A stretch of DNA of 64,000 nt from Elusimicrobia bacterium UBA4817 (GTDB lineage Bacteria > Elusimicrobiota > UBA8919): the NCBI GenBank assembly GCA_002402375.1, contig DHFT01000039.1, positions 12,809 to 76,808 on the forward strand. Direction: 5' to 3'. Positions 10,529 through 12,525 of this stretch are shown piece by piece. A program made the position numbers and the translations under genes. How positions within the stretch are numbered: the stretch's first letter is position 1; each line of letters opens with the position of its first letter. Below the pieces are notes generated by a model that saw only the letters and a program-made list of their open reading frames with translations, searched no databases and was not told the origin of the DNA.

Positions 10529-12525
10529 TTTATCATTTTTAGAAAATCGTTTTCCGAAATTATTTTTACACTTAATTTTTGGGCCTTTTTATATTTTGAG
10601 CCGGGGTTATCTCCCGCGACGACAAAGTCGGTTTTTTGACTGACTGATGACGAAGCATTTCCCCCGAGTTCCCGAACTTTTGATTCAGCATCGTTTCTTG
10701 AAAAGTTTTTCAACTCACCGGTAAAAACAAATGTCTTGCCTTCAAGAATTTTTGGTCCCGTTTTTATTTCTTCTTTAGTATTGACGCCCGCTTTTTTAAG
10801 TTTTTCAACCAGTTTTTTTGTTTCAGGCAGAGCAAAAAATTTAACAACCGTCTCCGCCACAACCGGTCCTATCTCGTAAATTTTCTGCAAGTCCTCAACG
10901 GTAGATTTCATTAAATCGTCAAGCGTTAAAAATTTTTCCGCAAGCACGATGGCAGCTTTTTCTCCGACATTGCGTATTCCCAGTCCGAACAGGAGCCGGC
11001 TTAATGGTCTGGTTTTGCTTTTTTCTATGGCATCTAAAAGATTCTGCGCTTTTTTTTCTTTGAACAGTTCAAGTTTCAGCAGGTCGTCTTTTTTGAGATA
11101 ATAAATATCTGCAAAGTCCGAAATCATTTTTTTTGAGATGAGTTGCACAACCGCCGCCTCACCAAGTCCCTCAATGTCCATCGCCTCCCGTTTTGCAAAA
11201 TGGACAAGTCCGTTTTCAAGATGTGCGGGGCAGGACGGATTGATACACCGCCATGCAACGTCTCCCTCTTTTTCTTTGACAATTGGCTGGCCACAAACCG
11301 AACATTCGGCGGGTTGTGAAATTTTTTTTTCTTTTCCGGTTCGCTTTGTTTCAATCACTTTTATTATTTTTGGAATTACCTCGCCCGCCCGTTCTATTAA
11401 AACGGTGTCGCCGATTCGGACACCGAGCCGTTCTATCTCGTCAAAATTGTGAAGTGTTGCACGGGAAATAGTTACCCCGCCCAATGCAACCGGTTCAAGT
11501 TCCGCTACGGGTGTTAAAATCCCGGTTCTGCCGACCTGAACGACTATATTTTTTATTTTTGTTGTTGCCTGTTTTGCCGGAAATTTATAAGCGATTGCCC
11601 ATCTGGGAGATTTCATCGTGAACCCTAATTTTTTCTGCTGTTCAAGTGAGTTGATTTTTATTACGAGTCCGTCTATTTCAAAAGGCATATTTTCCCTGTC
11701 AAATTCCCGTTTTCTGCAAAGTTTCACGACTTCTTCAATTTTTTTTGTAAGATGAATATTTTTAAGCGTCGTCGGCAGCCCGATTTTTTCGCACAGATTA
11801 AGAAACTCAAAATGTGTTTCAAATTTTTCCGTTCCGGGAATTGTGCCGTAAGAATGAACGATAAATTTTAATTTTCTTTCCGCTGTGATTTTTGGATTTT
11901 TCTGACGGAGTGAGCCCGCCGCTGCATTTCTCGGATTGGCAAACGGCTGTTCCCCGTTTTTCGAAATTTCCTCATTGAGTTTTTGAAAATCGGTTTTGTC
12001 AATATAAACCTCTCCCCGGACTTCCAGTGGGGTCGGAAGTCGGAAGTCGGAAGTCGGAAGTAATTTAAGCGGGATTGATTTTATTGTTTTTATATTGAGT
12101 GTAATGTCCTCCCCGTTGTCGCCGTCGCCCCTGGTTGCTCCTTGTACAAGCATTCCGTTTTTATATGTCAGAGCGCAACTTATTCCGTCTATTTTCGGCT
12201 CTATCACATATTCGTAATTTTCATTCGCTATTATTTTTTTTACCCGCTTATCCCATTCAATAATTTCGTCGGAAGAATATGTATTATCAAGCGAAAGCAT
12301 GGGGGTTGAATGTTTTACCGTCTTAAAATCTTTTACGGCATTGCCGGAAACTCTTTGCGTGGGAGAATCATCCGTTATAAATTGCGGATTTTTTTCTTCA
12401 AGTTTTTGAAGATGTTTCATCAGATTATCATATTCAGTGTCGGAAATTTCCGGTTGAGATAGAACATAATAGAGATGATCGTGATGTCGGATTTCTTTTT
12501 TTAATTTTTCTATTTCTTGTCGCAT
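10525..12525 (-). CDS. ligA: NAD-dependent DNA ligase
   Basis: KxDG adenylation motif 'IEPKIDGIS', Zn-finger cysteines, HhH and C-terminal BRCT. Start moved to internal ATG '[21 protein letters not shown]' (typical LigA N-terminus). Confidence 0.95.

Follow-up and report, generated by a model that had tools for sequence, protein, structure and literature searches.

In-frame heptanucleotide arrays in ligA and other housekeeping genes of an Elusimicrobia lineage

The ligA array and its host gene

The heptanucleotide (7-nt) repeat considered here lies within ligA, the gene for NAD-dependent DNA ligase, in a 64,000-nt stretch (the window, throughout) that is a 37.7% GC part of a metagenome-assembled genome (MAG) from Elusimicrobia (Elusimicrobia bacterium UBA4817, contig DHFT01000039.1). 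The gene product matches NCBIfam NF005932 over the whole profile (869 bits, positions 1-664 of 664), can be aligned over its full length with E. coli LigA (2OWO), and is the 666-aa protein recorded as P0001, from a third-party annotation (TPA) MAG. The ATG given as the start in Table 1 is likely to be the correct one, since an inverted repeat in the nusB-ligA spacer overlaps the extension of the open reading frame (ORF) that begins with an upstream TTG. That inverted repeat (12542-12617) is imperfect, with 29-nt arms that are 79% complementary and an 18-nt loop, and is made partly of a 10-nt tandem repeat, ATCTGCGTCC, in 2.5 copies.

An earlier note on the window had read four copies of GTCGGAA in ligA. 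That reading stands: Tandem Repeats Finder (TRF) gives period 7, 4.3 copies and 100% matches for this unit, and direct reading of the sequence concurs. On the coding strand the array is (CTTCCGA)x4.3, and its codons comprise the third base of L155 and then L156-P-T-S-D-F-R-L-P-T165, followed by P166, L167, E168, V169, R170, G171 and E172. The array's codons (156-165 of 666) are mid-gene, in the part that specifies the adenylation domain, and three assemblies agree on its sequence, namely the window, Logan contig L001 and, as protein P0001, the TPA MAG.

At the protein level the site is a surface loop, and a permissive one. In an AlphaFold model (mean predicted local distance difference test score, pLDDT, 87), residues 155-165 are coil with pLDDT of about 84-85, directly before the strand, 166-175, that bears EVRGE. 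The loop is the equivalent of H160-R167 of E. coli LigA and exceeds it by only 3 aa. Among 120 homologues it is highly variable in both length and sequence; the proline that closes the slot at its 3' end is conserved. E168, V169, R170, G171 and E172 do not vary across 36 homologues. The earlier placement of the array in a variable loop before an LEVRGEV block was therefore well judged, and the peptide then given was correct. The gene is in frame in all 120 homologues and in all three assemblies. In one homologue of 76% identity, P0012, the loop is TTHDLRLPAIPASDFRLPAIF, which looks as if the entire array slot, of 10 aa (30 nt), had been duplicated in tandem.

Table 1. Positions in the window of ligA, of the coding arrays and of the proposed inverted copy
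Feature	Positions	Strand	Description
ligA, NAD-dependent DNA ligase	10525-12525	minus	666 aa from ATG at 12525; reading frame unbroken across the array
ligA array	12032-12061	minus	perfect heptanucleotide array; TRF, exact scan, codon mapping
purH-mid array	7180-7208	minus	coding strand (TCGGAAG)x4.1, one variant unit/mismatch; encodes GSGKSEVGSV
purH-C array (C-terminal purH)	6520-6550	minus	CGGTAGA x4.4; coding strand (CGTCTAC)x4.4; encodes RLPSTVYRLP
alaS array	3092-3123	minus	coding strand (AGTCCGA)x4.6, one mismatch; encodes VRSPKSEVQSQ
ribE array	15360-15385	minus	coding strand 8-mer (CGAGTTCA)x3.25; encodes SSRVHEFT
Proposed inverted copy, CCGGACTTCC	12016-12025	minus	third base of the L167 codon and the E168-V169-R170 codons (GAA GTC CGG); outside the repeat

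Sister arrays in the window

The ligA array is not solitary. The window holds four perfect period-7 arrays of at least 3 copies, together with one of period 8, as against none in 50 dinucleotide shuffles. A search for further occurrences of the heptamer, as the earlier note had proposed, gave, across the 64 kb, 8 matches to CTTCCGACTTCCGA (two CTTCCGA units, with up to 2 mismatches) where 0.45 were expected, a number reached in none of 100 shuffles; all 8 fall in the alaS, purH-mid and ligA arrays. The purH-mid array (ACTTCCG x4.1) is the exact reverse complement of that in ligA, as had been noticed earlier, and, with both genes encoded on the minus strand, the coding sequence is (CTTCCGA)n in ligA and (TCGGAAG)n in purH-mid, i.e. 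one unit in opposite orientations. The unit in alaS is 1 nt away from the unit that these two share. The window's five GC-rich arrays are, without exception, in frame and inside minus-strand genes, namely alaS, purH (two sites), ligA and ribE, rather than being predominantly intergenic; A/T-rich arrays do occur in spacers. Coding-strand units of all the arrays are stop-free. A duplication of a different kind, though also in-frame-sized, is a 21-nt unit present twice, with 85% identity, at 28024-28064.

Orthologous sites in relatives

Comparison was with relatives whose LigA is 74-90% identical (designated L002, L003 and so on). Alignment with LigA orthologues, which the earlier note had suggested, reveals arrays of different units in the same slot, or no array. 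At equal register and slot length the units are CTTCCGA in the window, CTTCCCA in L002, CTACCCT in L003, and a mixture of CTTTCCA, CTTCCTA and CTTCCCA in L004. In L005 an array of CTTACCA is broken by a 23-nt GC-rich insert, and in L006 an array of CGTCCAT adjoins a GC-rich hairpin. The loop in L202, L204 and L205 is a non-repeat one (SEISL, TDIPF or SEIPL) that is 5 aa shorter, and more distant Elusimicrobia, and Omnitrophota, have ordinary LigA loops. Unit turnover is fast relative to protein divergence, as a single cluster of LigA sequences at 90% identity holds two slot versions, LPTSHFPLPI or LPSTLYPLPS. In a neighbor-joining tree of LigA minus the loop (used only for its topology and the shared SEI(P/S)L state, a rooting problem making the bootstrap values unusable), taxa with short loops interleave with array-bearing taxa, and SEI(P/S)L is found tree-wide. 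From this interleaving and the breadth of the SEI(P/S)L state, it follows that arrays arose more than once at the ligA loop.

The other sites display similar turnover. At purH-C the units are CGTCTAC, CTTCCCA and CCATCTT, each within 39 nt; L202 has there an 8-mer, CTTACCCG, with the product 1 aa longer, and L205 has an array-free loop of the same 39 nt. At purH-mid the array is absent from L003, whose protein is exactly 7 aa (3 units) shorter there. At the ribE site the units are 8-mers in the window and in L003 (CGATTTCA), and 7-mers in L002, L004, L005 and L006. The alaS site has AGTCCGA in the window and L204, AATTAAA in L003, GTTAGAA in L005 and no array in L205, where the protein is 6 aa shorter. 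In the L003 array, AATGAAA stands in place of AATTAAA at the very point at which perfect repetition would give an in-frame TAA.

The slot has a conserved [L/I]-P at its 3' end, and the units contain the particular synonymous codons with which each genome specifies it (CTT-CCG, TTA-CCA, CTA-CCG, TTC-CCA, TTA-CCC). This fits local seeding, or re-homogenization to the selected anchor copy. A strict rule by which arrays come as three added units is rejected, there being just one clean 7-aa difference (that of L003 purH-mid), with other comparisons differing by 3-6 aa or by 0. Given these differences, arrays mostly replace loop sequence and are not simply inserted into it. Peaks at 20, 27 and 34 nt in the histogram of run lengths are a by-product of variant units within longer arrays.

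A different layer of change is found within some of the relatives' arrays. The ribE heptamer arrays of L006 contain two identical 23-nt GC-rich elements, CTGCCTCGCCGTCGTCAGGCGGG (L006:6665-6687 and L006:7009-7031), and it is a related element, CTGCCCGACGACCGCCAGGCGGG, that interrupts the ligA array of L005 (L005:6351-6373). From their sequences these look like a small dispersed palindromic element nesting in arrays in frame (+8 aa). Such elements are in relatives L005 and L006 only, and the family was looked for in the window arrays and is absent from them. In L204 the ribE array site (about 7000-7215) has an insert of 20 aa, and an insert of 10 aa adjoins the AGTCCGA array in alaS, so that its ribE and alaS loops accumulate further insertions.

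Period spectrum and unit identity

In 205 kb of clade loci, perfect arrays of at least 3 copies number 13 for period 7, four for period 8, one for period 6 and none for period 9; 893 kb from distant genomes has one perfect period-7 array. The bias in period points to a mutational bias since selection alone, acting on coding arrays, would favor 6 and 9. Taken with the window counts, the class is enriched in this genome and its relatives; neither a lack of heptamer enrichment nor an identical, non-repeat sequence in relatives, which together the earlier note took as counting against its proposal, was found.

Heptamer arrays, with units of arbitrary sequence, are common in metagenomes. (CTTCCGA)x3 is in more than 120 metagenome stretches, on contigs of 33-75% GC, and is often in frame in other housekeeping genes, those for HypF, MurD and LeuRS. 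Other arrays on the metagenome contigs that have CTTCCGA arrays number 50 of period 7, seven of period 6 and none of period 9. In viral contigs the CTTCCGA unit is in 12 stretches and three other stop-free heptamers are in 10-11 each. A special status for CTTCCGA is accordingly rejected, both for its spread over so many stretches and such a range of GC content and because other stop-free heptamers are equally frequent in the viral contigs. Derivation from an Illumina adapter, to which TCGGAAG is a partial match, is dismissed, given that independent MAGs have arrays that keep the frame at orthologous codons. In the LeuRS genes of two related metagenome contigs of about 44% GC (L111 and L117), (AAGTCGG)n is in frame at the identical position, and L117 has a second array of this unit, in the opposite orientation, 700 nt upstream.

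Units nevertheless recur within a genome. Separate loci share a unit in 2 of 24 within-genome pairs in the clade as against 1 of 146 between genomes, and, for the metagenome contigs with the searched unit excluded, in 14 of 51 pairs within versus 27 of 2691 between; for the window genome, recurrence is judged from 64 kb of it. Both purH sites of L005 hold one unit. Two types of unit swap loci, with a genome-specific sixth base being kept: the window has CTTCCGA in ligA and CTACCGT in purH-C, while L003 has CTACCCT in ligA and CTTCCCA in purH-C. Co-occurrence of the CTTCCNA and CTACCNT types was tested for in other genomes, with none found elsewhere. Similarity of units in the clade is in modest excess, 12.6% of pairs being at a distance of 1 or less versus 4.8% for background.

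The neighboring inverted copy

The earlier note drew attention to an inverted copy of the unit adjacent to the ligA array, and proposed a fold-back that promotes slippage and expansion. An inverted copy is present, though it begins at 12016 and not at 12021. It consists of the last base of the L167 codon and the conserved codons for E168-V169-R170, which belong to the invariant EVRGE motif, nucleotidyltransferase motif III, and the match is not above chance. CCGGACTTCC is predicted to pair with GGAAGTCGG (12035-12043) in a stem of 6 bp plus 3 bp that has a single bulge and a loop of 9 nt (-6.7 kcal/mol). However, in the structure prediction that had been recommended the ligA fold is no better than 200 shuffles (z = -0.22 for the plus strand and -0.67 for the minus strand), and four other coding arrays that were folded are less stable than their own shuffles (z of +0.1 to +2.0).

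The longest exact inverted match of the array unit within 100 nt on either side was compared with 300 random positions of the same locus. For ligA an exact inverted 7-mer gives p = 0.083, i.e. 8.3% of random window positions have one. Nearby inverted copies are not enriched in general: p is 0.05 or less for 4 of 24 clade arrays and for 7% of 115 metagenome arrays, with median p of 0.47-0.83. The EVR codons GAA GTC CGN are also in array-free genomes (GAA GTC CGT in L008 and GAA GTC CGC in L017), and a matching inverted copy was sought beside ligA arrays with other units (L003 CTACCCT and L006 CGTCCAT), with none being found. Because shuffles fold equally well, the EVR codons occur without an array, and relatives have arrays without an inverted partner, the fold-back model is unsupported, and the neighboring 'hairpin' in ligA is a chance match to conserved codons. 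The hairpin as driver of the array was rejected on the folds of both strands, for ligA and the four other arrays, together with the inverted-copy test on the 24 and 115 arrays.

A hairpin in single-stranded DNA as the cause of slippage and expansion at ligA is in consequence improbable. Apart from the predicted stem, what favors it is an exact inverted 9-mer about 45 nt from the purH-mid array (p = 0.007), and that spacers in this genome do hold hairpins of mutually inverted arrays. One is in the ribBA-ribH spacer (13620-13710), where two mutually inverted 8-mer arrays, (AAAAGGNN)x4 and (NCTTTCNN)x4, are predicted to form a long hairpin as RNA (-24.3 kcal/mol, z = -3.1 versus shuffles). The other is at 19610-19740, where (GTTAAAG)n and an inverted, CTTTAAC-like counterpart are on either side of an (ATGAAAA)x3 array, at the junction of genes for clostripain-like and PorV/PorQ-like proteins (-19.6 kcal/mol, z = -2.5).

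Length change and assembly reliability

Slippage as such, as distinct from fold-back, has partial support, from a sister array. Another assembly, GCA_003486845.1 (L250), is 99.87% identical to window positions 1-7043, with two mismatches and one gap, and the only indel in these 7,043 nt is the lack of one 7-nt unit from its purH-C array (L250:495-517). Its purH is annotated as two fragments, HAX61670.1 of 257 aa and HAX61593.1 of 194 aa ('hypothetical, partial'), with the latter being out of frame after the array on account of the one unit fewer. (L250 and a further assembly, L251, both begin at window 7043.) A MEGAHIT assembly has 4.4 copies at purH-C, as in the window. Logan contigs end inside the purH-C array in two runs and, in one case, inside the alaS array; these ends appear to mark real heterogeneity, as a further contig end adjoins a real single-nucleotide polymorphism, AlaS G177R.

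However, the purH-C allele that is 7 nt shorter may be an assembler artifact, a possibility returned to below. No such change is seen at ligA. The ligA, ribE and purH-mid arrays are spanned unbroken and are identical in all assemblies, and copy-number polymorphism at the ligA array was sought in LigA sequences of at least 90% identity, with none found; a 679-aa member differs by its annotated start only.

That the ligA array is itself an assembly or sequencing artifact has a negligible probability. Tandem repeats are error-prone in assemblies, and one assembly does have a unit difference at purH, but three assemblies from different software agree on the ligA array, long conserved ORFs stay in frame through arrays, and independent MAGs of other studies have arrays at equal codon positions.

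Origin and maintenance of the arrays

The ligA repeat is best regarded as one member of a class of heptanucleotide microsatellites, found lineage-wide, that is carried in permissive, loop-coding segments of housekeeping genes, that is of slippage type and that is without a function of its own, a reading given a probability of about 0.6. Birth of an array, and its homogeneity, would be due to replication slippage or to intra-array recombination among copies. Purifying selection on the host protein would then let pass only those arrays that keep the frame, with a net change that is a multiple of 3 (3 units being 21 nt, or 7 aa), and would also demand a coding strand that is free of stops and a loop site that is tolerant. 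The encoded peptide, and the weak adjacent hairpin, would be by-products.

Several considerations weigh against this. Simple slippage gives no route from about one copy to about four in an essential gene that avoids lethal intermediates of +7 or +14 nt. Nor does it account for loop replacement at constant length (the array-free purH-C loop of L205 is also 39 nt), for repeated gain of arrays at the ligA loop, or for the recurrence of one unit at separate loci of a genome, and it supplies no cause for a period of 7 nt. No length polymorphism is seen at the ligA array, with the three assemblies being identical and the loops of near relatives being of equal length. In addition, the one-unit difference at purH-C may be due to assembler collapse: at a de Bruijn word size of 24 the array of 31 nt, i.e. 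that of purH-C, would be the only one to collapse, and this is exactly the pattern observed.

An alternative with a bearing on these difficulties is that each genome has a few heptamer 'families' and that arrays are written or converted from that pool, with local slippage serving only for maintenance. Ectopic gene conversion, microhomology-primed template switching to another array, or a dedicated enzyme are possible routes. Unit sharing is far commoner within genomes than between them, as with the inverted pair of ligA and purH-mid in the window and the two purH sites of L005; two unit types exchange loci with the genome-specific sixth base retained; loop sequence is replaced by arrays at constant length; arrays have been gained repeatedly at the ligA loop; and the 23-nt GC-rich elements that nest in relatives' arrays are, by analogy, reminiscent of Nostoc small dispersed repeats (SDRs). 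Against this, that the units hold the genome's own [L/I]-P codons fits local seeding, the CTTCCNA and CTACCNT types are not found together elsewhere, unit similarity is just modestly above background, no flanking signatures or candidate enzyme were identified, and the sample is small. [quoted passage not shown] The more specific proposal, of a heritable, genome-specific process of writing or conversion, whether by ectopic conversion that draws on a stock of array families or through an enzyme of repair or replication by which 7-8 nt are copied reiteratively, is more doubtful again. If true, such a process could overwrite loop segments of essential genes at constant length in one in-frame step, and would cover the 7-nt period in unrelated phyla, within-genome recurrence of units, repeated births at one loop and the absence of frameshift intermediates.

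Function at the level of the product, either of a 7-aa-periodic peptide (LPTSDFR) or of a repeated RNA motif, e.g. as a linker or as a regulator binding site, has little probability. Slot length is constant in the window's closest relatives and the proline at its 3' end is conserved. However, the peptide changes wholesale between orthologues that are at least 88% identical, close relatives manage with SEISL or SEIPL instead, and a single unit occurs in either orientation and in proteins that are unrelated (HypF, LeuRS and MurD); perfect DNA periodicity with all three frames being read argues for an origin at the DNA level. Still less probable is phase variation, with ligA or the other hosts being switched on and off by frameshift at a non-triplet repeat. 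The unit is of a length not divisible by 3 and one assembly has a frameshifted purH allele with one unit fewer, though that allele may be an assembly artifact. LigA and AlaS are essential, the array is mid-gene in a part for a catalytic domain, no out-of-frame ligA is present in three assemblies or 120 homologues, and the hosts are housekeeping enzymes and not surface or restriction-modification genes. Neither a dispensable or variable host with a 5'-proximal repeat, nor coexisting out-of-frame alleles, is seen with the ligA array. Repeat slippage in a class of tolerated microsatellites remains the favored origin.

Relation to known repeat systems

Over-represented heptanucleotide and other long simple sequence repeats (SSRs) in prokaryotes were reportedly described by Mrazek in PNAS in 2007. 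The ligA array has features of this class and of STRR-like sequences: near-perfect head-to-tail 7-nt copies, over-representation of period 7 and a unit that recurs at several loci. The class designated 7n3 has a positive median over-representation in Planctomycetes (2.0), Chloroflexi (1.0), Deferribacteres (1.0), Bacteroidetes (0.75) and Verrucomicrobia (0.5) (Huang & Mrazek 2014, PMC4060949 Table 2). Arrays of the heptamer GGGNATC are in Xanthomonas and Nostoc (Rehm et al. 2015, PMC4692102); these are G-rich, form G-quadruplexes, and are mainly intergenic and under-represented in coding regions (PMC4692102). By their authors' own statement, detailed literature on heptameric repeats is lacking (Rehm et al. 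2015, PMC4692102). Neither survey (PMC4060949, PMC4692102) included Elusimicrobia. Shared with these prokaryotic repeats are perfect 7-nt tandem units, present at numerous sites in a genome and usually as about 4 copies, a period that is far more often 7 than 6, 8 or 9, and lineage-specific abundance. In contrast, the window units are without G-tracts and most of the arrays are in frame within housekeeping genes. The ligA array adds to this known kind of repeat from a phylum not previously surveyed, and is unusual for in-frame sites in essential protein-coding genes.

Cyanobacterial STRR heptamers reportedly occur inside the gene for RNase P RNA (Vioque in 1997). Parallels are that a few families of heptamer unit are at many loci per genome, that strains differ, and that there is tolerance in an essential gene at a permissive position. 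However, STRRs are mostly intergenic or in an RNA gene, whereas the window arrays must keep the reading frame, and phylum and units differ. Nostoc SDRs, from work of Elhai in 2008, are said to nest inside heptamer arrays. Along with Rickettsia palindromic elements, SDRs resemble the present case in that short DNA-level elements are tolerated in frame in housekeeping proteins, and the 23-nt elements of L005 and L006 nest in arrays. The ligA array is, in contrast, purely tandem, with no palindromic element, terminal repeats or dispersed flanks, and the window arrays generally are not of the mobile palindromic insert type.

Repeat units within the ORFs of Borgs are reportedly multiples of 3, in contrast to the window unit of 7 or 8 nt, three of which make one peptide period. 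The likeness is that Borg tandem repeats are perfect, recently formed, fast-evolving and independently arising, and create new peptide segments (PMC9879509). The SSRs of contingency loci, e.g. the tetranucleotide and heptanucleotide repeats of Haemophilus (PMC2651432, PMC8262952), are also non-triplet tandem repeats in ORFs in which slippage by one unit leads to a frameshift. However, those are in genes for surface or restriction-modification functions, close to the 5' end, and are met with out of frame in populations, whereas the ligA array is mid-gene and always in frame.

Other features of the window

Matches to Rfam, all on the minus strand, are an FMN riboswitch upstream of ribD (17698-17846), two cobalamin riboswitches (47286-47470 and 53731-53901) and a tRNA (577-648). 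The 18797-21279 region encodes a protein of the PorV/PorQ family and a clostripain-like protease that bears a sorting domain for type IX secretion.

Significance

Heptanucleotide repeats have been recognized for some two decades as an odd, over-represented class of SSR in several bacterial phyla. The Elusimicrobia clade is a natural reporter system for them, with arrays in frame in loops of LigA, AlaS, PurH and RibE, which are essential and easily aligned. Since close relatives differ at the same codons in whether an array is present, in its unit (with the phase being fixed), in decay and in nested inserts, births, homogenization and the frame filter can be reconstructed for each site. On the practical side, heptamer arrays break or mis-size assemblies (purH being split by a 7-nt difference in one MAG) and may be misread as frameshifts or pseudogenes. 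In the case of ligA, the array is a benign, tolerated loop polymorphism and no regulatory device; more broadly, heptamer arrays generate rapid peptide novelty in conserved proteins.

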